From the NCBI RefSeq assembly GCF_001677475.2, contig NZ_CP015229.1: 64,000 nucleotides of DNA; one strand, given 5' to 3'. This document shows, one piece after another, positions 11,700 through 43,400 of the stretch. Source of the DNA: Escherichia coli (GTDB taxonomy: Bacteria; Pseudomonadota; Gammaproteobacteria; Enterobacterales; Enterobacteriaceae). The translations under genes were made by a program, and so were the position numbers. The notes beneath the pieces were generated by a model. The model was given only the letters and a program-made list of their open reading frames with translations. It was not told the origin of the DNA and did not search any database. Each line of letters opens with the position of its first letter. Positions within the stretch are counted from its first letter, which is position 1.

Positions 11700-14600
11700 A
11701 TGGAAGAGGCATTCTGGGCGGCAAGGCAGGGTGATGCCCTGCTGCATACGTCGTTTATGGCAGATGTGCTGGGGGCAGTTGTAGAGGTTGCCGCCACAGC
11801 CCTGGTGGATGTTCTGGTTGTCGGAACCATGGCGGCGCTGGGCGGAGTTGAAGTGGCAACGCTGGGCTGCTCAACCATTTTAGCGATCGGTATAGCAACA
11901 GCGGTATTTATGTCGTATCAGGGCTGGAATGACCGAATCAGTAGGGAAAGTGAGCAACTGGCGAACTGGCTTTTCCCGCCTCAGATTGAAGGTTACATCC
12001 TCACCGGCTCTGGCGACACATGGATCAACAGCAAACCTGCCGCGCGGGCCGCGGCGACTGCGGCATCGCGGCAGGACATTGAGGCGCAGGAGGCGCAGGC
12101 GAAGGCGGAACAGGAAGAAGCGCAGCGTCAGGAGGATGCCAGAACGTTCCTGGATGTGGCCGGGGAATATCTGGAAATGGCGGGGGCCATAGCCCTGGCG
12201 GTTAACCCGGTGACAGGGCCTGTGCTGATGTCCCGGGCGCTGCACGACCAGCTCAGTACGGAAGAAGGGCGTTCTGAAATGGTGGATGGCGTGACACATT
12301 TTGTGTCGGAACTATGGCAGCCCACCGTGGCCAGTGCGGCCCCGGGCTCCACCCCGACCCCTGACGATAAAATCGACTGCCATAAACATCCCTCCTCACT
12401 GACGCAGTTTCTCGCACAAAAAAAAGCCGCCTTTCTGGATGACCCCCTGGGAACGGCCCTTAACCTGCTGAGTCCGGGCGGTATGCTGGAAACCGCCTTT
12501 CAGGGAGTGAATGCGGTTATTGGCAGCATCAGTAATCTGTTCAAAGGCGATGATGAACCGCCCGCAGCGGAATATATCGCGGAAGGCGCGCGGGATGTGC
12601 GTATCAACAGCCAGCCGGCGGCACGCAGCGGGGCACGCTGCACCTGCGAGGCCAGGGTGGTGAATGAGCCGGGGAACGGGGCGTTTGTGTCACCGGATGT
12701 CCGCATTGGCGGTCCGTTACTGGTGGTCAGGGATATCAGAAGCGGCAGGTCGCAGATAACCCTGGTGGCAACCGTGGCGCTGATGTTTCTTCGCCCGGGC
12801 AAAATGCTTTCTAAAATCGCCTGTTTTGCTGCCAGTGTCGGGATGGGGGTGATGACGCAGAAGGCCATCAGTGCCCTTCCGCATCCGGTCAATGCCGCCA
12901 CCGGAGCCAAATATCTGGCCGATGACGATGATTTTGACTTCAGTCTGCCGGGCCACTTTCCGCTGGACTGGCAGCGCGTGTACAGCAGTCGTGACGACCG
13001 CACGGAAGGGATGTTCGGGCAGGGCTGGAGTGTAATGTATGAAGTCAGCCTCGAGCGCACGCCGGGTACTGCTGACGAAAACTGTATGACCTTTGTGTCG
13101 GGCATGGGACGACGTCTGGATATGGAGGCCGTGCTGCCGGGGAGCGGGTTTTACAGCCCCGGCGAAGGACTGGCAGTACGGCGGGGTGAGCAGGGGCACT
13201 GGCTTATCAGCAGCGATGACGGGCAGTTTTTTCTGTTTGAGGCCGACCCGCGTCACCCGCAGCGCCAGCGGCTGAAAATGCTGGGCGACCGCAACAGCAA
13301 CTGTCTGAATCTGTACTACGACGAGCTGGGGCGCATCACGCAAATCAGCGGTGAACAGCAGCGTCCGTGCATCCGTCTGCATTATGAACTGGCGGCGCAT
13401 CCCCGGCGGGTGACACAGATTTATCAGCATTTCCCTGAGATGGCTCCTTTACTGCTGCGTCGTTACCGCTATGACGAGGCCGGCGACCTGAACGGCGTGT
13501 ACGACAGCACGGGGCACCTGCTGCGCGAGTTTGCTTACGACGAAAACCACTGCATGACCCTGCACCGCCAGCCGGGCGGCGAAGGGTATTATTACCAGTG
13601 GGGCTGGTATGAAGGCCCGGATGACGCAGCGTGGCGGGTGACGGGGCACCACACGGACAGCGGTGAACAGTACCGGCTGGCGTGGAGCCTGGCGGCACGC
13701 AGGCTGTGCGTGACGGACGGGCTGGGGCGCACGCGTTATCATCAGTGGGACGCGCAAAATCAGGTGACGGCGTACCAGGACGAAGCCGGGCAGGTGACGA
13801 CGTTCCGCTGGAGCGACGAAGAACGGCTGTTACTGGGAATGACCGATGCGCAGGGCGGCAAATGGCGCTATGTGTATGACCGGCAGGGGCATATCACGGA
13901 GACGCACGACCCGCTGGGGCGGGTGGCACAGACACAGTGGCACCCGGTGTGGCACCAGCCGGAAACGGAGGTGGACGCGGCGGGGAACAGCTGGTGCTGT
14001 GAGTACGATGAACGCGGCAATCTTCTTGCGGTGACCGACCCGCTGCAGCAGAACACCCGGTATCAGTATGACCGCCACGGCCAGGTGGTGCAGATAACGG
14101 ATGCGCGCGGGGGGAATAAATACCTTCAGTGGAACGAAGACGGGCAGCTCATGCGGCACACGGACTGTTCCGGCTCGCAGACGGCCTGGTTCTACGACGA
14201 ACGCACGCGGCTGATACGGATGACAGACGCGCAGAGCCACAGCACGCGCTACGGGTATGACGACAGCGGCCACCTGACGGAGGTGATACTGGCGGACGGC
14301 CGCACGGTGAATTACCAGTCGGACGCGGCGGGCAGGCTGGTGAAGTACACCAGCCCGATGGGGAGGATAACGCGCTGGCAGCGGGACGGGCAGGGCCGGG
14401 TGCGCAGCCGGACAGACGCGACGGGGCGCAGGACGGCGTTCGGGTACGATGCCTACGGGCGTCTGGTCACGCTCACGAACGAGAACGGAGAAAGCTACCG
14501 GTTCCGCCATGACGTGCTGGACCGTCTGGCGGAGCAGATAAATCCGGACGGCTGCCGCCAGACGTACCGCTACAACGCGCTGAACGCGGTCACGGAAGTG

Positions 14601-16415
14601 GTGTTCACCGGGGACCGGGGCGGTGAAATCCGCCACCGGCTGGCACGTGATGCGGCGGGCCGGCTCACGGCAAAGGAGACAGCCGATGGCCATACGGAAT
14701 ACGTCCATGATGCGGCAGACCAGCTACTGGAAATCCGCCGCCGACGGTCGGATGCCGGGGAAACAGACGCACCGGAGATTATCCGTTTCAGTTACGACAG
14801 ACTGGGGCGGATGCTGACCGAGGAGACGGCGCAGGGCGTCCTGACCCATCAGTACGATGAACTCAGCAACCGGACAGCCACCACCTTTCCGGATGGCAGA
14901 ACGCAGCGTCATCTGTACTACGGCAGCGGCCATCTCCAGCAGATAAATCTGGACCGGGAGGTCATCAGCGAGTTCACACGTGACGCCCTGCACCGGGAAG
15001 TGCTCAGAAGTCAGGGGCGACTGAGCACGCGGCAGCTTTATGACCCCGCCGGGCGGCTGAAGCGCAGGGAGACATACAGCGGGATGCGCGGGGTGGTACC
15101 GGAGACGTTCACGGACCGGCAGTACAGCTACAGCGGCGAGGATGAATTGCTGAAGACGCGGCACAGCCGGCGGGGGGAAACGGATTACGTCTACGACCCC
15201 ACGGGGCGCATCACGGCGTGCCGCTCGGAGGATGAGGGGTATCTGGCGAGCTGGCAGTACGACGCGGCGGGAAACCTGCTGGGGAGGCGCGCGGGGGAAA
15301 GGGCCACGGCAGAAAACAGCGTGGTGCCGTTCAACCGGCTGATGTCTTACCGTGGTGTGCACTACCGTTATGACGAATTTGGCCGGACGGTGGAAAAGGA
15401 GGGCCGGAGCGGCACGCAGAGTTACCGTTATGATGCGGAACACCGGATGGTGGAAGTGACGACAGCGCGGGGGACATACCGGTATGTGTACGATGCGCTG
15501 GGGAGGCGGACGGAAAAACAGCACATCAGCCCTGACGGTAAAGCGTACAACCGGACGACATTTTTATGGGACGGAATGCGGCTGGCGCAGGAGAGCAGGC
15601 CGGAGGGAATAAGCAGCCTGTATATCTACAGCGACCCGGGGAGTTATGAACCGCTGGCGCGGGTGGATAAGGCGGGCAAAGAGGGCCCGAACCGGATACT
15701 GTATTTTCACACGGATGTGAACGGTGCGCCGGAAGAGATGACGGACAGTGACGGGAAAATCGTGTGGGAGACGGGGTATCAGGTCTGGGGTAACACGATA
15801 CAGGAGAAGGACCACGGCGGGGTGGAGCAGAACCTGCGCTACCAGGGACAGTACCTCGACAGGGAAACGGGGCTGCACTACAATCTGCACAGGTACTATG
15901 ATCCGGATGTCGGGCGGTTCATGGTAACGGACCCGATAGGGCTGGCGGGGGGGCTGAATCTTTATACTTATGCGCCTAATCCAGTAAGCTGGATAGATCC
16001 CCTTGGTTTAAGTTGTTACTTTAATTCTAAGTCTAATCGCTGGCATGACAGGCAGACAGGTCGTTTTACAAAACGACCAACAGATCCTTCAGAATTAGTT
16101 CATAATGGCCGAATTGACAAGGCTGATATAGATGTTTGGGCTAGTCAAGGAGGGATTCCAAATACATGGGGGCATGATCCGTTAAAATTCCCCAGTGGTG
16201 GTTTTAAATATGATGCTGGTAATTATACTGTTCATGGTCATGGTGCTAATCCATCTGCGGCAGCTAAATTTCCTAATTCTAATGCGGCAAATGGGCCGAC
16301 AGCGAGCATGAAAAATACTTCAACAGGTGAAGTGTTTAGAACCGATGGAACTTGGGGGACATTCAAATCAGATGCCAATGGTGCTCATATCCCCCTTGAT
16401 GGCTCACCTTATTGA
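11700..16415 (+). CDS. Rhs-family T6SS effector with N-terminal prePAAR motif, transmembrane segments, PAAR region, YD-repeat shell and variable C-terminal toxin domain
   Basis: 1571 aa; AARQGDALLH matches the prePAAR AARxxDxxxH motif; hydrophobic stretches follow; two ...PAAR... segments; numerous YD repeats; DPIGL...DPLGLS demarcation then low-GC 134-aa tail. Confidence 0.9.
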   Translation: MEEAFWAARQGDALLHTSFMADVLGAVVEVAATALVDVLVVGTMAALGGVEVATLGCSTILAIGIATAVFMSYQGWNDRISRESEQLANWLFPPQIEGYILTGSGDTWINSKPAARAAATAASRQDIEAQEAQAKAEQEEAQRQEDARTFLDVAGEYLEMAGAIALAVNPVTGPVLMSRALHDQLSTEEGRSEMVDGVTHFVSELWQPTVASAAPGSTPTPDDKIDCHKHPSSLTQFLAQKKAAFLDDPLGTALNLLSPGGMLETAFQGVNAVIGSISNLFKGDDEPPAAEYIAEGARDVRINSQPAARSGARCTCEARVVNEPGNGAFVSPDVRIGGPLLVVRDIRSGRSQITLVATVALMFLRPGKMLSKIACFAASVGMGVMTQKAISALPHPVNAATGAKYLADDDDFDFSLPGHFPLDWQRVYSSRDDRTEGMFGQGWSVMYEVSLERTPGTADENCMTFVSGMGRRLDMEAVLPGSGFYSPGEGLAVRRGEQGHWLISSDDGQFFLFEADPRHPQRQRLKMLGDRNSNCLNLYYDELGRITQISGEQQRPCIRLHYELAAHPRRVTQIYQHFPEMAPLLLRRYRYDEAGDLNGVYDSTGHLLREFAYDENHCMTLHRQPGGEGYYYQWGWYEGPDDAAWRVTGHHTDSGEQYRLAWSLAARRLCVTDGLGRTRYHQWDAQNQVTAYQDEAGQVTTFRWSDEERLLLGMTDAQGGKWRYVYDRQGHITETHDPLGRVAQTQWHPVWHQPETEVDAAGNSWCCEYDERGNLLAVTDPLQQNTRYQYDRHGQVVQITDARGGNKYLQWNEDGQLMRHTDCSGSQTAWFYDERTRLIRMTDAQSHSTRYGYDDSGHLTEVILADGRTVNYQSDAAGRLVKYTSPMGRITRWQRDGQGRVRSRTDATGRRTAFGYDAYGRLVTLTNENGESYRFRHDVLDRLAEQINPDGCRQTYRYNALNAVTEVVFTGDRGGEIRHRLARDAAGRLTAKETADGHTEYVHDAADQLLEIRRRRSDAGETDAPEIIRFSYDRLGRMLTEETAQGVLTHQYDELSNRTATTFPDGRTQRHLYYGSGHLQQINLDREVISEFTRDALHREVLRSQGRLSTRQLYDPAGRLKRRETYSGMRGVVPETFTDRQYSYSGEDELLKTRHSRRGETDYVYDPTGRITACRSEDEGYLASWQYDAAGNLLGRRAGERATAENSVVPFNRLMSYRGVHYRYDEFGRTVEKEGRSGTQSYRYDAEHRMVEVTTARGTYRYVYDALGRRTEKQHISPDGKAYNRTTFLWDGMRLAQESRPEGISSLYIYSDPGSYEPLARVDKAGKEGPNRILYFHTDVNGAPEEMTDSDGKIVWETGYQVWGNTIQEKDHGGVEQNLRYQGQYLDRETGLHYNLHRYYDPDVGRFMVTDPIGLAGGLNLYTYAPNPVSWIDPLGLSCYFNSKSNRWHDRQTGRFTKRPTDPSELVHNGRIDKADIDVWASQGGIPNTWGHDPLKFPSGGFKYDAGNYTVHGHGANPSAAAKFPNSNAANGPTASMKNTSTGEVFRTDGTWGTFKSDANGAHIPLDGSPY

Positions 16416-16425
16416 GATTATTAAT

Positions 16426-16755
16426 ATGAATTTGCAAGAAATAAAAAATAAAGTCTTATCTCTTCCTACAATAATGAATTTAGCGGATGAGCTATTAATA
16501 ATTGACGAGTTGATGACTATTGATGTTAATGATTTGATTGAAAATCAAGATATCTTTAAATCTATTATAGATGCATTAGAATTATCACATATTGATTCTG
16601 GGTTTATGGAGTTAACAGAAGAAAATGAGAGTTCATTTATAAACTTCTACAAATGGCTTAATAAAACAAATAATAAATTTAACTTGGGAATAAATGCTAA
16701 CACTATAGATAGTTTTAGTTTGACTGTTGAAGATGTGAAAAAAATGATGTTATAG
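16426..16755 (+). CDS. Candidate Rhs immunity protein
   Basis: Track ORF 16327..16755 overlaps the rhs 3' end; first ATG after the rhs stop is 16426 (109 aa); AT-rich like the Rhs C-terminal domain; position immediately after toxin domain. Confidence 0.5.
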   Translation: MNLQEIKNKVLSLPTIMNLADELLIIDELMTIDVNDLIENQDIFKSIIDALELSHIDSGFMELTEENESSFINFYKWLNKTNNKFNLGINANTIDSFSLTVEDVKKMML

Positions 16756-16766
16756 ATAAAATATAA

Positions 16767-16800
16767 AGCCGGGAATATGATCTCCCGGCTTTTTTATTAT
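16767..16800. terminator. Bidirectional rho-independent terminator between immunity gene and symE-like gene
   Basis: AGCCGGGA-loop-TCCCGGCT hairpin followed by TTTTTTATTATT. Confidence 0.6.
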
Positions 16801-17130
16801 TCAACTCTCGTTCAGTACACTAAACATCCCGTTCCGCATCCCCTTAACCACCTGTTTAACCTGATAAAGCTCCTCCCGCAGTTCCTGCATCTCGTCACTG
16901 TCAGCGATGATGGTCAGGCACCCATCCGAGATCTTTACAGTCACGCCTGTCCCGGTATCAAATCCCGCCTCTTTCAGCCAGTCGCCCTTAAGGTGCAGGC
17001 TGGGGTGTTGTGAATAATACCGGGCTATACCGGTTGTGCGATCTTCGTGGCGGGCTCTGACATAGCCGACTTTATAGCGGCGCTGTGTTTTGGAAATGGT
17101 GACTTCTGGCGTAATATCGTGTTCAGCCAT
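16801..17130 (-). CDS. SymE-family toxin homolog (AbrB-fold, type I toxin family), copy 1
   Basis: 109 aa; LHLKGDWLKEAGFDTGTGVTVKISDGCLTI resembles the K-12 SymE core (LKGQWLEAAGFATGT...EGCIVLT) as I recall it; GAGGTAG RBS. Confidence 0.8.
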   Translation of the reverse strand: MAEHDITPEVTISKTQRRYKVGYVRARHEDRTTGIARYYSQHPSLHLKGDWLKEAGFDTGTGVTVKISDGCLTIIADSDEMQELREELYQVKQVVKGMRNGMFSVLNES

Positions 17131-17195
17131 GATTAACTACCTCGATTAGTTGCTTGTGGTGAGCGGCTGTTACAGGCGGCAACCTGTAGCAGTCG
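17124..17195 (+). ncRNA. Predicted cis-antisense sRNA overlapping the symE-like start (SymR-like antitoxin RNA candidate), copy 1
   Basis: Plus-strand sigma70-like promoter inside the symE 5' coding region (TTGGAA, 16-nt spacer, TAATAT at about 17090-17117) and a downstream hairpin (about 17166-17192) whose non-Watson-Crick positions are G-U wobbles only in the plus-strand transcript. Confidence 0.35.
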
Positions 17196-17202
17196 CGTTA
17201 AA

Positions 17203-17432
17203 TATCAACGCATTACCTTCATTACCTGCTTCATCTTCTCCTGCGTGATCGCCATATCCAGAATGCGGCAGATCACTTCCTGATCGTCTGCTTTAAGCTC
17301 ATCAACCTGCTTACACAGTTCCTTTAACCGCTTGTTTTTAATATCGAAAACAGGAGCGGTGGAACCTTCTTCACCCAACAGCAGGTGGTCAATACTGACT
17401 TCCAGAAGCTGGGCCAGCTTAATGATGTAATC
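17203..17432 (-). pseudogene. 3' remnant of an XRE-family HTH regulator gene truncated by the H-repeat element
   Basis: Minus-strand frame reads ...DYIIKLAQLLEVSIDHLLLGEEGSTAPVFDIKNKRLKELCKQVDELKADDQEVICRILDMAITQEKMKQVMKVMR-stop with no start codon; frame closes just inside the IS end. Confidence 0.45.
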
Positions 17433-18722
17433 AGGGAAAGATCACGTAATGCTGCTTTTTTGTACTAAACAATTCGCATTTTATGTTTAAAAATTGAGAT
17501 ATTCCTCATTACATAAAGCTGTTTTTTATTGCTTATACATGATCAAATACTCCTTACATAATTAAGGAGAACAAAATGGAACTTAAAAAATTGATGGAAC
17601 ATATTTCTATTATCCCCGATTACAGACAAGCCTGGAAAGTGGAACATAAATTATCGGATATTCTACTGTTGACTATTTGTGCCGTTATTTCGGGTGCAGA
17701 AGGCTGGGAAGATATAGAGGATTTTGGGGAAACACATCTCGATTTTTTGAAGCAATATGGTGATTTTGATAATGGTATTCCTGTTCACGATACCATTGCC
17801 AGAGTTGTATCCTGTATCAGTCCTGCAAAATTTCACGAGTGCTTTATTAACTGGATGCGTGACTGCCATTCTTCAGATGATAAAGACGTCATCGCAATTG
17901 ATGGAAAAACGCTCCGGCATTCTTATGACAAGAGTCGCCGCAGGGGAGCGATTCATGTCATTAGTGCGTTCTCAACAATGCACAGTCTGGTCATCGGACA
18001 GATCAGGACGGATGAGAAATCAAATGAAATTACAGCTATCCCTGAACTTCTTAACATGCTGGATATTAAAGGAAAAATCATCACAACTGATGCGATGGGT
18101 TGCCAGAAAGATATTGCAGAGAAGATACAAAAACAGGGAGGTGATTATTTATTCGCTGTAAAAGGAAACCAGGGGCGGCTAAATAAAGCCTTTGAGGAAA
18201 AATTCCCACTGAAAGAATTAAATAATCCAGAGCATGACAGTTACGCAATTAGTGAAAAGAGTCACGGCAGAGAAGAAATCCGTCTTCACATTGTTTGCGA
18301 TGTCCCTGATGAACTTATTGATTTCACGTTTGAATGGAAAGGACTGAAGAAATTATGCGTGGCAGTCTCCTTTCGGTCAATAATAGCAGAACAAAAGAAA
18401 GAGCCAGAAATGACGGTCAGATATTATATCAGTTCTGCTGATTTAACCGCAGAGAAGTTCGCCACAGCAATCCGAAACCACTGGCACGTGGAGAATAAGC
18501 TGCACTGGCGTCTGGACGTGGTAATGAATGAAGACGACTGCAAAATAAGAAGAGGAAACGCCGCAGAATTATTTTCAGGGATACGGCACATCGCTATTAA
18601 TATTTTAACGAATGATAAGGTATTCAAGGCAGGGTTAAGACGTAAGATGCGAAAAGCAGCCATGGACAGAAACTATCTCGCGTCAGTCCTTGCGGGGAGC
18701 GGGCTTTCGTAATCTTGCCCTG
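17432..18722 (+). mobile_element. ISAs1-family (H-repeat type) insertion sequence, intact copy
   Basis: About 1.29 kb; imperfect terminal inverted repeats CAGGGAAAGATCAC / (rc) CAGGGCAAGATTAC; single 378-aa transposase ORF. Confidence 0.75.
17576..18712 (+). CDS. ISAs1-family transposase (H-repeat-associated protein)
   Basis: 378 aa; sequence strongly resembles E. coli H-rpt proteins (YdcC/YhhI type) from memory. Confidence 0.85.
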
Positions 18723-18736
18723 ACCATCTGACGGAT

Positions 18737-18922
18737 GTGGCTGGTAATCCATCAAACATTGCTAATAGATTTTCAAAGGTCATTGATGGAAAAGATGTTC
18801 AGTTTGTTACTAAGGACTCTTTATTTGCCGGGCCGAGCGGTAAGTTTGCGCAATTTGAATCTACTTGGCAGGTTTTGGATAATGGTTCATTACGATTAAC
18901 AACAGTGATCCCGAAATTATGA
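18737..18922 (+). CDS. Possible orphan toxin C-terminal fragment downstream of the IS
   Basis: 61-codon GTG-initiated ORF whose frame opens exactly at the IS right end; AT-rich; ATGA overlap with next ORF. Confidence 0.3.
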   Translation: MAGNPSNIANRFSKVIDGKDVQFVTKDSLFAGPSGKFAQFESTWQVLDNGSLRLTTVIPKL

Positions 18923-19239
18923 TTAGAGAATTTGAAGAGAAAATGTCTGATTTGTTTGGTGTTGATGCAACATCATTCGATCCTGAATATGCGCAGTGGA
19001 CATATTTATTTAAGAAGGGTTTATTTTCACTTGAATTTGTTTATGCTCTGGATAAAACAATATCTACGGCTTTATATTATAATGAAAATTTATTGTCTTT
19101 TTATTTTGCCAATGGTCTGGAACACCTTAGCATAGAAGACAATAAAATTCATGGTGTTATTGTTAAAGGTAATACAACCAGAAAACTAGAGATAGATCCA
19201 TTAAATTTAATTATAAAATGGGAAGATTCATTAATATAA
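18919..19239 (+). CDS. Possible orphan immunity protein
   Basis: 106 aa, AT-rich, translationally coupled to the upstream fragment; same position relative to terminator/symE as the rhs immunity gene. Confidence 0.35.
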   Translation: MIREFEEKMSDLFGVDATSFDPEYAQWTYLFKKGLFSLEFVYALDKTISTALYYNENLLSFYFANGLEHLSIEDNKIHGVIVKGNTTRKLEIDPLNLIIKWEDSLI

Positions 19240-19280
19240 TGATTGCAATATTCCATTTCAATAAGAAATAACCAATAAAA

Positions 19281-19320
19281 AGCCGGAGTGCTATTAAATC
19301 TTCCGGCTTTTTTATTATTT
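19281..19320. terminator. Bidirectional rho-independent terminator (copy 2)
   Basis: AGCCGGAG-loop-CTTCCGGCT hairpin followed by TTTTTTATTATTT. Confidence 0.55.
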
Positions 19321-19648
19321 AATTCTCGTTCAGCACACTAAACATCCCGTTCCGCATCCCCTTAACCACCTGTTTAACCTGATAAAGTTCCTTCCTCAGT
19401 TCCTGCACCTCGTCGCGCTCCGCAATCAGGATCAGGCACCCCTCCGAGATTTTCACAGTCACGCCCGTCCCGGTATCAAATCCCGCCTCAGCGAGCCAGT
19501 CGCCTTTAAGGTGCAGGCTGGGGTGCCGTGAATAATACGTGGTCATGCCTGTTTTACTGTTCTGATGGCGGGCGCTGACATAGCCCACCTGATACTGGCG
19601 CTGTGTTTTGGAAATGGCGACTTCTGGCGTAATATCGTGTTCAGCCAT
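19319..19648 (-). CDS. SymE-family toxin homolog, copy 2
   Basis: 109 aa, about 80 percent identical to copy 1 by eye; same RBS and flanks. Confidence 0.8.
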   Translation of the reverse strand: MAEHDITPEVAISKTQRQYQVGYVSARHQNSKTGMTTYYSRHPSLHLKGDWLAEAGFDTGTGVTVKISEGCLILIAERDEVQELRKELYQVKQVVKGMRNGMFSVLNEN

Positions 19649-19716
19649 GATTAACTACCTCTGTTAGTTGCTTGTGGTGAGCAGATTGTCAGTGTTGGTA
19701 GCACTGGCAATCTGCG
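19642..19716 (+). ncRNA. Predicted cis-antisense sRNA overlapping symE-like start, copy 2
   Basis: Same promoter-like hexamers (about 19608-19635) and a 13-bp-arm hairpin (about 19682-19714) with a single T-G position that pairs only in the plus-strand RNA. Confidence 0.35.
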
Positions 19717-19889
19717 TTAAAAATCAGTGTATTACTCTCTTTTCCATGGAAAGATCACGTAACGCTGCTTTTTTGTACTAAATAATTCGCATTTTATGTT
19801 TAAAAATTGAGATATTCCTCATTACCTAAAGCTGTTTTTTTATTGCTTATACATGATCAAATACTCCTTACATAATTAAGGAGAACAAA

Positions 19890-20372
19890 ATGGAACTTAA
19901 AAAATTGATGGAACATATTTCTATTATCCCCGATTACAGACAAGCCTGGAAAGTGGAACATAAATTATCGGATATTCTACTGTTGACTATTTGTGCCGTT
20001 ATTTCGGGTGCAGAAGGCTGGGAAGATATAGAGGATTTTGGGGAAACACATCTCGATTTTTTGAAGCAATGTGGTGATTTTGATAATGGTATTCCTGTTC
20101 ACGATACCATTGCCAGAGTTGTATCCTGTATCAGTCCTGAAAAATTTCATGAGTGCTTTATTAACTGGATGCTTGACTGCCATTCTTCAGATGATAAAGA
20201 CGTCATTGCAATTGATGGAAAAACGCTCCGGTACTCTTATGACAAGAGTCGTCGCAAGGGAGCGATTCACGTTATTAGTGTGTTCTCAATAATGCACAGT
20301 CAGATTCCTTGGAAGATCAAGACGAATAAAAAAACAATGAGATTACAGCTGTTTCTGAATTTCTTAACATAA
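19890..20372 (+). pseudogene. Degraded second ISAs1/H-repeat transposase gene (N-terminal 130 aa conserved, then divergent and truncated)
   Basis: 160-aa ORF identical in its first part to the intact copy, then diverging into ...[31 protein letters not shown]; element upstream sequence conserved from about 19745. Confidence 0.7.
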
Positions 20373-40482: not shown

Positions 40483-43400
40483 ATGGACGTCAGTCGCAGA
40501 CAATTTTTTAAAATCTGCGCGGGCGGTATGGCTGGAACAACGGTAGCGGCATTGGGCTTTGCCCCGAAGCAAGCACTGGCTCAGGCGCGAAACTACAAAT
40601 TATTACGCGCTAAAGAGATCCGTAACACCTGCACATACTGTTCCGTAGGTTGCGGGCTATTGATGTATAGCCTGGGTGATGGCGCGAAAAACGCCAGAGA
40701 AGCGATTTATCACATTGAAGGTGACCCGGATCATCCGGTAAGCCGTGGTGCGCTGTGCCCAAAAGGGGCAGGTTTGCTGGATTACGTCAACAGCGAAAAC
40801 CGTCTGCGCTACCCGGAATATCGTGCGCCAGGTTCTGACAAATGGCAGCGCATTAGCTGGGAAGAAGCATTCTCCCGTATTGCGAAGCTGATGAAAGCTG
40901 ACCGTGACGCTAACTTTATTGAAAAGAACGAGCAGGGCGTAACGGTAAACCGTTGGCTTTCTACCGGTATGCTGTGTGCTTCCGGTGCCAGCAACGAAAC
41001 CGGGATGCTGACCCAGAAATTTGCCCGCTCCCTCGGGATGCTGGCGGTAGACAACCAGGCGCGCGTCTGACACGGACCAACGGTAGCAAGTCTTGCTCCA
41101 ACATTTGGTCGCGGTGCGATGACCAACCACTGGGTGGATATCAAAAACGCTAATGTCGTAATGGTGATGGGCGGTAACGCTGCTGAAGCGCATCCCGTCG
41201 GTTTCCGCTGGGCGATGGAAGCGAAAAACAACAACGATGCAACCTTGATCGTTGTCGATCCCCGTTTTACGCGTACCGCTTCTGTGGCGGATATTTACGC
41301 ACCTATTCGTTCCGGTACGGACATTACGTTCCTGTCTGGCGTTTTGCGCTACCTGATCGAAAACAACAAAATCAACGCCGAATACGTTAAGCATTACACC
41401 AACGCCAGCCTGCTGGTGCGTGATGATTTTACTTTCGAAGACGGCCTGTTCAGCGGTTATGACGCTGAAAAACGCCAGTACGATAAGTCGTCCTGGAACT
41501 ATCAGTTCGATGAAAACGGCTATGCGAAACGCGATGACACGCTGACTCATCCGCGCTGTGTGTGGAACCTGCTGAAAGCGCACGTTTCCCGCTACACGCC
41601 AGACGTCGTTGAAAACATCTGCGGTACGCCAAAAGCCGACTTCCTGAAAGTGTGTGAAGTGCTGGCCTCCACCAGCGCACCGGATCGCACAACCACCTTC
41701 CTGTACGCGCTGGGCTGGACGCAGCACACCGTGGGTGCGCAGAACATCCGTACTATGGCGATGATCCAGTTACTGCTCGGTAACATGGGTATGGCCGGTG
41801 GTGGCGTGAACGCATTGCGTGGTCACTCCAATATTCAGGGCCTGACTGACTTAGGCCTGCTCTCTACCAGCCTGCCAGGTTATCTGACGCTGCCGTCAGA
41901 AAAACAGGTTGATTTGCAGTCGTATCTGGAAGCGAACACGCCGAAAGCGACGTTGGCTGATCAGGTGAACTACTGGAGCAACTATCCGAAGTTTTTCGTT
42001 AGCCTGATGAAATCTTTCTACGGCGATGCCGCGCAGAAAGAGAATAACTGGGGTTACGACTGGCTGCCGAAGTGGGACCAGACCTACGACGTCATCAAGT
42101 ATTTCAACATGATGGACGAAGGCAAAGTCACCGGTTATTTCTGCCAGGGCTTTAACCCGGTTGCGTCCTTCCCGGACAAAAACAAAGTGGTGAGCTGCCT
42201 GAGCAAGCTGAAGTACATGGTGGTTATCGATCCGCTGGTGACTGAAACCTCTACCTTCTGGCAGAACCACGGCGAGTCGAACGATGTCGATCCTGCGTCT
42301 ATTCAGACTGAAGTATTCCGTCTGCCTTCGACCTGCTTTGCTGAAGAAGATGGTTCTATCGCTAACTCCGGTCGCTGGTTGCAGTGGCACTGGAAAGGTC
42401 AGGATGCGCCGGGCGAAGCGCGTAACGACGGCGAAATTCTGGCGGGTATCTACCATCATCTGCGCGAGCTGTACCACGCCGAAGGTGGTAAAGGCGTAGA
42501 ACCGCTGATGAAGATGAGCTGGAACTACAAGCAGCCGCACGAACCGCAGTCTGACGAAGTGGCGAAAGAGAATAACGGCTATGCGCTGGAAGATCTCTAT
42601 GATGCTAATGGCGTGCTGATTGCGAAGAAAGGTCAGTTGCTGAGTAGCTTTGCGCATCTGCGTGATGACGGTACAACCGCATCGTCTTGCTGGATCTACA
42701 CCGGTAGCTGGACAGAGCAGGGCAACCAGATGGCTAACCGCGATAACTCCGACCCATCCGGTCTGGGGAATACGCTGGGATGGGCCTGGGCGTGGCCGCT
42801 CAACCGTCGCGTACTCTATAACCGTGCTTCGGCGGATATCAACGGTAAACCGTGGGATCCGAAACGGATGCTGATCCAGTGGAATGGCAGCAAGTGGACG
42901 GGTAACGATATTCCGGACTTCGGCAATGCCGCACCAGGTACGCTAACCGGGCCGTTTATCATGCAACCGGAAGGGATGGGACGCCTGTTTGCCATCAACA
43001 AAATGGCGGAAGGTCCGTTCCCGGAACACTACGAGCCAATTGAAACGCCGCTGGGCACTAACCCGCTGCATCCGAACGTGGTGTCTAACCCGGTGGTTCG
43101 TCTGTATGAACAAGACGCGCTGCGGATGGGTAAAAAAGAGCAGTTCCCGTATGTGGGTACGACCTATCGTCTGACCGAGCACTTCCACACCTGGACCAAG
43201 CACGCATTGCTCAACGCAATCGCCCAGCCGGAACAGTTTGTGGAGATCAGCGAAACGCTGGCGGCGGCGAAAGGCATTGCCAATGGTGACCGTGTCACTG
43301 TCTCCAGCAAGCGTGGCTTTATCCGCGCGGTGGCTGTGGTAACGCGCCGTCTGAAACCGCTGAATGTAAACGGTCAGCAGGTTGAAACGGTGGGTATTCC

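Follow-up and report, generated by a model that had tools for sequence, protein, structure and literature searches.

Two probable genes for divergent SymR-family antisense RNAs at SymE-family toxin genes in an Rhs region of Escherichia coli

SymR (RyjC) is the antitoxin RNA of the symE/symR type I toxin-antitoxin system of Escherichia coli K-12 (Kawano, Aravind & Storz 2007, PMC1891008). It mainly blocks translation, independently of RNase III and Hfq, and its effect on the mRNA is about threefold (PMC1891008). For SymE genes that are linked to a helix-turn-helix (HTH) gene, Kawano and colleagues proposed transcriptional control, with control by a small RNA only where there is no transcription factor (PMC1891008). 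In Serratia sp. ATCC 39006, loci that combine SymE with an XRE-HTH gene were proposed to be “hybrid type I/type II” systems, and no RNA partner was identified (Hampton 2020, PMC7725324). Here, we consider a 64,000-nt stretch of E. coli DNA (contig NZ_CP015229.1 of RefSeq assembly GCF_001677475.2), which we call the window. It contains two SymE-like genes, and a first-pass annotation, made from the sequence by a model, had predicted a cis-antisense RNA across the start of each of them. We conclude that these two elements are, quite probably, genes for divergent cis-antisense RNAs of the SymR family (Table 1).

The targets are members of the SymE family that are far from K-12 SymE. Each encodes a protein of 109 amino acids; the two share 81% identity, and identity to K-12 SymE is 37%. 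In precomputed Pfam results, PF08845 (SymE_toxin) is assigned to a protein that is identical to copy 1 and to all of the close homologs. Scores against the NCBIfam equivalog for SymE (NF010128) are 52 bits for copy 1 and 57.9 bits for copy 2, which are both below the cutoff of 132. So the window genes appear to belong to the SymE family without being orthologs of K-12 SymE.

The antisense elements can be linked to SymR by searching in either direction. In a search of 7 kb (the E-values are for a search of this size), the Rfam symR model (RF01809) matched both copies over its full length, positions 1–77: copy 1 at 17125–17199 (38.5 bits, E = 1e-4) and copy 2 at 19643–19718 (48.3 bits, E = 5e-7). 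The first-pass annotation had proposed the known SymR/SymE organisation, with RNAs at 17124–17195 and 19642–19716, and these full-length matches bear it out. The gathering score for this family is 61 bits, and a scan in gathering mode gave no symR match at either copy; standard annotation misses both elements because they score below this threshold. For the opposite direction, we trained a covariance model, R2, on 42 SymR-like sequences that did not include K-12. R2 recovers K-12 SymR at L002:1336–1418 (annotated as 1336–1412) with 47.2 bits and an E-value of 5e-10. Across the 64-kb window, R2 finds the two expected sites only. RNA 1 scores 84 bits with both R1 and R2, and RNA 2 scores 83 bits with R1 and 81.5 bits with R2.

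Each element is about 77 nt long, and its plus strand is predicted to form two hairpins (Table 1). Folding of the plus-strand transcripts had been suggested as a check on the prediction, and the outcome favors it: both copies have a predicted energy of -35.3 kcal/mol, with z-scores of -5.0 and -5.3, and none of 200 shuffled sequences was as stable. The minus strands are far weaker, at -21.4 and -22.3 kcal/mol (z of -1.8 and -3.3 for copies 1 and 2). The inverted repeats that had been placed about 40–65 nt downstream of the predicted start are present in both copies, and each is part of hairpin 2. In copy 1, the repeat GCTGTTACAGG (17166–17176) / CCTGTAGCAGT (17183–17193) lies within a 14-bp stem (17163–17176/17183–17196). 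In copy 2, the stem pairs 19681–19694/96 with 19700/02–19715. Just two pairs in hairpin 2 of copy 1 are not Watson-Crick, and both are G-U on the plus strand; copy 2 has one T-G within the 13-bp arms that were originally described and another near the loop. It had been claimed that the non-Watson-Crick positions are G-U on the plus strand, and this is true of every exception in hairpin 2 of both copies. Hairpin 1, which was absent from the first-pass annotation, has four more G-U pairs and an anti-Shine-Dalgarno sequence (CCUC) in its loop; in RNA 1 it covers the complement of the start codon. Over their first 40 nt, the two RNAs differ at just two positions (38 of 40 identical).

To look beyond the two copies, we scanned with an alignment of SymE-like proteins. 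The matches listed included 80 loci from Enterobacterales, with representatives of E. coli and Salmonella not among them. A first covariance model was built from 21 sequences. At 54 of the 80 SymE-like loci (a sample, not a census), there was a full-length covariance match on the opposite strand, over the start codon. The loci without a match lie at contig ends, are N-terminally truncated pseudogenes, or have unrelated DNA joined inside the SymR segment. At four loci from several species (L003, L004, L038, and L043), homology ends inside the SymR segment, after 12–30 nt of the RNA, with unrelated DNA beyond. This suggests that the boundary between symE and SymR is a recurrent recombination junction in orphan arrays of Rhs and contact-dependent inhibition (CDI) systems.

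We computed covariation statistics for 44 distinct sequences. The structure can pair in 95.6% of cells, as compared to 28–46% if the partners are slid by 1–3 columns. The covariation score is 0.616 versus 0.198 for column shuffles, and 0 of 500 shuffles reach 0.616. Thirteen of the 19 base pairs have changes on both sides, including 12 of the 14 pairs in hairpin 2. The covariation that had been noticed between the two copies in the window is therefore general. Protein operator sites without conserved RNA structure in other homologs, which the first-pass annotation had named as grounds to reject its prediction, are the opposite of what we see. In about 41 of 42 sequences, both hairpins also appear in independent minimum free energy (MFE) folds. 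Hairpin 2 is hypervariable, with 34 distinct 5' arms among the 44 sequences, in contrast to the strong conservation of the first 40 nt. This hypervariability could reflect neutral drift under a constraint to pair or selection for copy-specific recognition among many paralogs (as in Xenorhabdus and Photorhabdus). In the inner stem of hairpin 1, we see conservation instead of covariation, with the sequences in two registers (UCAACU/AGUUGG and UAACUA/UAGUUG). Because of the two registers, and because most of the signal is conservation, we dropped a claim of covariation for this stem.

Which strand carries the structure can be judged from its imperfect pairs, since a G-U wobble in one strand is an A-C mismatch in the other. 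On the SymR strand of the 44 homologs, the ratio of G-U to A-C is 54:15 in hairpin 2, 75:3 in hairpin 1, and 129:18 overall. With the set de-replicated to 19 hairpins (identity below 75%), G-U still outnumbers A-C by 23:5 (p = 9e-4, binomial test), so the strand-specific wobble argument that was first made for the window copies holds more broadly. The mean MFE is -34.8 kcal/mol for the SymR strand and -25.4 kcal/mol for the opposite strand, and the SymR strand is the more stable one in 40 of 44 sequences. Matches of the model to the opposite strand involve hairpin 2 only and score 14–26 bits, versus 46–89 bits on the SymR strand. From the strand-specific bias and the stability of the folds, a symmetric DNA palindrome is excluded and a structure in the sense mRNA is unlikely.

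These data bear on two other explanations for the inverted repeats. First, the structure might act within the sense (minus-strand) mRNA, as an intercistronic or leader hairpin that terminates or processes the transcript or occludes translation of symE, with no antisense RNA. In the toxin's mRNA, this stretch forms the leader or intercistronic spacer, and the minus strand does form weaker hairpins (-21 to -22 kcal/mol, with the z-scores given above). However, the wobble positions become A-C mismatches in that strand, the SymR strand is the more stable one by 9.3 kcal/mol on average, and the model's matches to the opposite strand are poor. Also, a sense-strand structure does not account for an invariant -10 element at synonymous codon positions (described below). 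We consider this explanation very improbable. Second, the repeats might be DNA operators for the neighboring HTH repressor, with the hypervariability of the repeats mirroring that of the HTH proteins. A gene of the Xre/HTH_3 type adjoins the palindrome in at least 29 of 38 loci, and diversity is great among the HTH proteins and among the palindromes alike. However, a DNA palindrome would not lead to imperfections that are G-T on one strand. The repeat also lies after the stop codon of the HTH gene instead of at a promoter, and loci with the same HTH family (L001, L017, and L054/55) have unrelated stems in hairpin 2. Furthermore, the same hairpin is present in K-12 SymR, which has no HTH gene as a neighbor, and a continuous 14-bp stem with a 4–7-nt loop is typical of RNA. 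We rejected the operator hypothesis, to which we give hardly any credence, because of the strand bias, because the repeat follows the stop codon, and because the stems do not correlate with HTH family.

A predicted SymR-like promoter lies inside the open reading frame (ORF) of symE, with its -10 element where that of K-12 was identified experimentally. Both copies have TTGGAA, a 16-nt spacer, and TAATAT on the plus strand within the first codons of the SymE-like gene, just as the first-pass annotation had it. It had also placed the start of transcription near the complement of the start codon, and this fits as well: the predicted +1 is an A at 17125 or 19643 (7 nt past the -10 element in copy 1), which precedes the start codon's complement (17128–17130 or 19646–19648) by 3 nt, as in K-12. 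A generic scan for promoters and terminators listed neither of the SymR promoters because it requires 9 of 12 consensus positions and these hexamers have 8; it listed no terminator at hairpin 2 either. By itself, the match to the hexamers is not beyond chance, so support for the promoter rests on its conservation in homologs.

That conservation cuts across the protein sequence. The hexamer at -13 to -8 has the form T-A-n-A/T-A-T (TAnAAT or TAnTAT), and the T, A, A, and T are invariant in all 44 homologs. Codons 5 and 6 each have one of the invariant bases at the third position, even though they encode D/H and I/S/C/Y/T, and the peptides that overlap the -10 element differ (for example, AEHDITPE, AKAHSKQN, AERDCNVN, and TDTHSIAQ). 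Farther upstream, a TTT at -36 to -34 is invariant or nearly so (43–44 of 44), and the rest of the -35 region varies (TTGGAA, TTCGAA, or TTTATT). In K-12, two silent changes (CATTCT to CACTCC) abolished SymR (Kawano 2007, PMC1891008). On the SymR strand, these changes alter TAGAAT at -13 to -8, which is the same position as the -10 element of the homologs. Overall, sequence comparisons demonstrate homology to SymR in both directions, covariation of the structure, a strand-specific bias for G-U pairs, and conservation of the promoter at synonymous sites.

We infer that these elements are transcribed, that the 3' end lies close to hairpin 2, and that the SymR-like RNAs repress the synthesis of the SymE-like proteins. 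In the mechanism that we propose, a sigma-70 promoter within codons 5–14 of the symE-like gene would drive constitutive transcription of the plus strand from an A that is three bases inside the ORF. The product would be an RNA of about 77 nt with two hairpins, ending just past hairpin 2. It would be perfectly complementary to the symE-like mRNA across codon 2, the AUG, and the GAGG Shine-Dalgarno sequence, and would also cover the entire leader, to within about 4 nt of the stop codon of the upstream HTH gene. The loop of hairpin 1 would display the anti-Shine-Dalgarno sequence for the initial contact, and hairpin 2 would be a stable GC-rich stem at the 3' end, for stabilization or termination, whose sequence drifts and is selected for pairing only. 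By analogy to K-12 SymR, the RNA would act mainly by blocking the initiation of translation, with a modest destabilization of the mRNA. Because the first 40 nt are so similar between the copies, each RNA is expected to repress the other copy as well.

The related loci show what the original arrangement probably was. An Xre-type HTH gene lies directly upstream of symE, in the same orientation, in most of the related loci with enough upstream sequence (the 29 or more of 38 mentioned above). The stop codon of the HTH gene is 57–104 nt before the start of symE, so the SymR-like RNA fills the intergenic spacer. In E. coli PEC395, the HTH protein is intact (132 amino acids, with HTH_3 at residues 20–74, E = 7e-12). 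No intact HTH_3 gene is found upstream of either copy in the window: copy 1 retains just the C-terminal ~77 codons, which have a weak match to the RstR family, and copy 2 retains nothing. In copy 1, an insertion of an ISAs1-family element cut the gene at about residue 56 and removed the DNA-binding N-terminus. The second ISAs1 copy abuts SymR-like RNA 2, and so copy 2 is left without an HTH gene or the native promoter of symE. The two insertions have a common left end (GGAAAGATCACGTAA) at about 17438 and about 19747. Judging from these comparisons, the ancestral module is an HTH gene upstream of symE, which was apparently destroyed by ISAs1 in the window. Another assembly (L083) has a single unit, which fits a deletion by recombination between two insertion sequence (IS) copies.

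LexA/SOS control, as in K-12, was rejected for the window loci. In K-12, there is a LexA-box-like sequence (CTGTATATATCATCAG, with 1 mismatch) at L002:1419–1434, starting 7 nt past the annotated 3' end of symR. When we scanned for CTGT-N8-ACAG with one mismatch allowed, we recovered the K-12 site but found no LexA box at 17101–17460 or 19621–19780, and there is no equivalent near symE of PEC395.

It is about an even bet, in our view, that, throughout Enterobacterales, SymR-family RNAs are a regular third part of HTH-SymR-SymE modules, and not an alternative to the HTH protein. Such modules would be a type I/type II hybrid, and K-12 symER would be derived, through loss of the HTH gene and acquisition of LexA control. 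In the hybrid module, the antisense RNA would span the whole 57–104-nt spacer, between the stop codon of the HTH gene and the toxin's codon 2, and would uncouple translation of the toxin from translation of the regulator within a shared transcript. Hybrid HTH-SymR-SymE modules would punctuate the orphan-toxin arrays of Rhs and CDI systems.

Several observations count against our identification of the window elements as SymR-family genes. Both Rfam scores (38.5 and 48.3 bits) are under the gathering score. The alignment behind the pair counts was made by fitting to the model, and this favors pairing; the 44 sequences are also relatives of one another, so that their changes cannot be counted as independent. 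The promoter hexamers of both copies have only 8 of the 12 consensus positions, with poor conservation of the -35 region in Xenorhabdus. Neither window copy has a U-tract after hairpin 2, though K-12 SymR lacks one too. Finally, because both symE-like genes of the window lost the upstream HTH gene or promoter region to ISAs1, the antisense RNAs may have little sense transcript to act on.

This last point leads to the possibility that the window elements look intact but are relics, with both symE-like genes separated by ISAs1 from their native promoter and nothing left to regulate. Besides the truncated or missing HTH genes next to the IS ends, the lack of a LexA box fits with this, and relatives are often decayed, with N-truncated symE genes, breakpoints inside SymR, and (in S. 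flexneri) deletion of hairpin 2. Yet both ORFs, both promoters, and both RNA structures in the window are fully intact, and the copies pair through different stem sequences. A protein identical to that of copy 1 is found in several NCBI draft assemblies, and the SymR-like element comes along with it unchanged. There may also be outward transcription from the end of the IS. On balance, we think it rather doubtful that the elements are relics.

The SymR-like sequence might instead be part of a longer plus-strand antisense transcript that starts within or beyond the symE-like coding sequence (CDS), of the type of IsrA or Ssr1. IsrA is a 423-nt RNA that was detected in Salmonella; it is antisense to STM0294.1n and the two have inverse expression (PMC2330248). 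Ssr1 of Shigella flexneri was mapped between an Rhs gene and SF0269 (PMC4782007). In the window, the Rfam model for isrA (RF01385) matches the plus strand above its gathering score at 16931–17059 and 19449–19577, antisense to the body of both symE-like ORFs, and the model for Ssr1 (RF02627) has partial plus-strand matches at 16520–17100 and 19112–19618. However, the strongest match to isrA is at a Salmonella locus (L089:2599–2727, minus strand, 141 bits) where the symE-like gene's 5' end and the SymR segment were replaced by a fragment of an Rhs core, joined between the -35 and -10 elements. L089 lacks the SymR segment, so IsrA and SymR are separable, and we rejected the idea that IsrA is the same RNA as the SymR-like element. 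Moreover, each of the window RNAs has a conserved promoter of its own, its 5' end is homologous to that of K-12 SymR, and long and short transcripts can coexist. We consider it improbable that a longer transcript accounts for these elements.

We also considered whether the Ssr1 locus of S. flexneri could be a SymR. At the S. flexneri locus (L095–L097:2454–2506, minus strand), a SymE-family gene with a 105-amino-acid product lies next to an Rhs gene, and its SymR-like element is decayed, with hairpin 1 only. We rejected this candidate because the element lacks hairpin 2; the published 5' end of Ssr1 could not be mapped onto it. The isrA family looks like the antisense strand of SymE-family coding sequences, and from these comparisons, IsrA and Ssr1 appear to be distinct from SymR but to overlap SymE-family genes that were not recognized. 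This overlap affects how the phenotypes of their deletions should be read. In particular, if the S. flexneri locus is the Ssr1 locus, then the phenotypes of the delta-Ssr1 mutant may involve the removal of a toxin gene.

The two SymR-like elements lie in an Rhs toxin locus, in which a 1571-codon Rhs ORF (11700–16415, plus strand) is followed by small ORFs on the plus strand. Two near-repeat units lie 3' of the Rhs ORF, and each has a bidirectional terminator, a minus-strand ORF for a 109-amino-acid protein, and an ISAs1/H-rpt element (Table 1). The small ORFs resemble a fragment of an Rhs C-terminal toxin with candidate immunity genes (an orphan cassette), and each such group of ORFs precedes a symE/SymR unit.

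Table 1. Features of the two symE/SymR units and their surroundings, in window coordinates.
Feature	Position	Strand	Details
SymR-like antisense RNA 1 (predicted)	17125–17201	+	hairpin 1 17126–17160, linker GA, hairpin 2 17163–17196
SymR-like antisense RNA 2 (predicted)	19643–19720	+	hairpin 1 19644–19678, hairpin 2 19681–19715
Predicted sigma-70 promoter, RNA 1	TTGGAA 17090–17095, 16-nt spacer, TAATAT 17112–17117	+	within symE-like codons 5–14
Predicted sigma-70 promoter, RNA 2	TTGGAA 19608–19613, 16-nt spacer, TAATAT 19630–19635	+	from sequence and conservation in homologs
SymE-family toxin gene, copy 1 (109 amino acids)	16801–17130	-	ORF; start-codon complement 17128–17130
SymE-family toxin gene, copy 2 (109 amino acids)	19319–19648	-	ORF; start-codon complement 19646–19648
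3' remnant of Xre/HTH_3 regulator gene (~77 codons)	17205–17438	-	near-identical to residues ~57–132 of the PEC395 HTH protein
ISAs1-family (H-rpt) element	17440–18720 (boundaries approximate)	+	transposase 17576–18712; NCBIfam transpos_ISAs1, 416 bits
Second, degraded ISAs1 copy	19747–20372	+	starts ~27 nt past the 3' end of SymR-like RNA 2
Bidirectional intrinsic terminator	16765–16792	both	common to the upstream plus-strand Rhs-associated ORF and symE copy 1; terminator scan
Equivalent terminator, copy 2	~19279–19310	both	read from the sequence
Small ORFs after the Rhs gene and the ISAs1 element	16327–16755, 18737–18922, 18919–19239	+	without family matches

Farther along the window, a SECIS_3 element (41065–41123, plus strand, 84 bits) lies at the start of fdnG, which has 98.1% identity to the best E. 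coli genomes. The ORFs 3' of fdnG match the expected sizes of fdnH and fdnI, and there are large ORFs upstream of the size of nitrate reductase genes. Judged by ORF sizes, the gene order seems to resemble the rhsE-narZYWV-fdnGHI region of E. coli. The SymE-like module itself is present in about 200 of 5,426 complete E. coli genomes. At the homologous site of E. coli PEC395, the RefSeq annotation includes only coding sequences and no RNA feature.

Our results imply that the SymR family is wider than the Rfam threshold or current RefSeq annotation captures. The covariation supports the prediction from 2007 that there are RNA-regulated homologs of SymE. It also corrects that prediction in part, in that the RNA occurs together with an HTH regulator instead of replacing it. 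For the control of toxins in Rhs and CDI toxin islands, R2 is a ready model, and the design of silent mutations is simple. The wordings “SymR-like” and “SymR homolog” were not found in the literature that we searched, which is an incomplete collection, so there may be an earlier description.

How do the window elements compare to the known systems? They are probably further members of the SymR family that score below its threshold, and they would work by the mechanism already known, which the HTH-linked architecture extends modestly. Like K-12 SymR, each has its predicted promoter inside the ORF, with the -10 element at -13 to -8 and a +1 A 3 nt inside the ORF, and a length of about 77 nt; the two hairpins are joined by UUGUGRUKAGC, and the 3' end lacks a U-tract. 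When aligned to K-12 SymR, they have in common the AGYCAU at the 5' end, hairpin 1, the UUGUGRUKAGC junction, hairpin 2 followed by CGCGYUAAA, and the position of the -10 element, and covariance models detect the relationship in both directions. Unlike K-12 SymR, they score below the gathering threshold, and their targets are only 37% identical to SymE and fall under the NCBIfam equivalog cutoff. The window also has no LexA box, whereas K-12 has one right after symR. The ancestral HTH-symE pair is found in Rhs and CDI toxin arrays, while K-12 symE/symR is in the hsd-mcr restriction island.

The comparison to HTH-linked systems is similarly mixed. As in the SymE/XRE-HTH loci of Serratia and the cHTH-SymE operons of Kawano and colleagues, an HTH_3 gene precedes the SymE gene in the same orientation, within a genomic island, and some copies are duplicated or decayed. 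In contrast to the accounts of Hampton 2020 and Kawano 2007, we found SymR homologs in the very loci that have a linked HTH gene (at least 29 of 38). Finally, IsrA and Ssr1 are like the window RNAs in being plus-strand antisense RNAs at SymE-like loci that are adjacent to Rhs genes, but they map to the body of the coding sequence and beyond, whereas the SymR-like RNAs map to the segment with the start codon and the leader.

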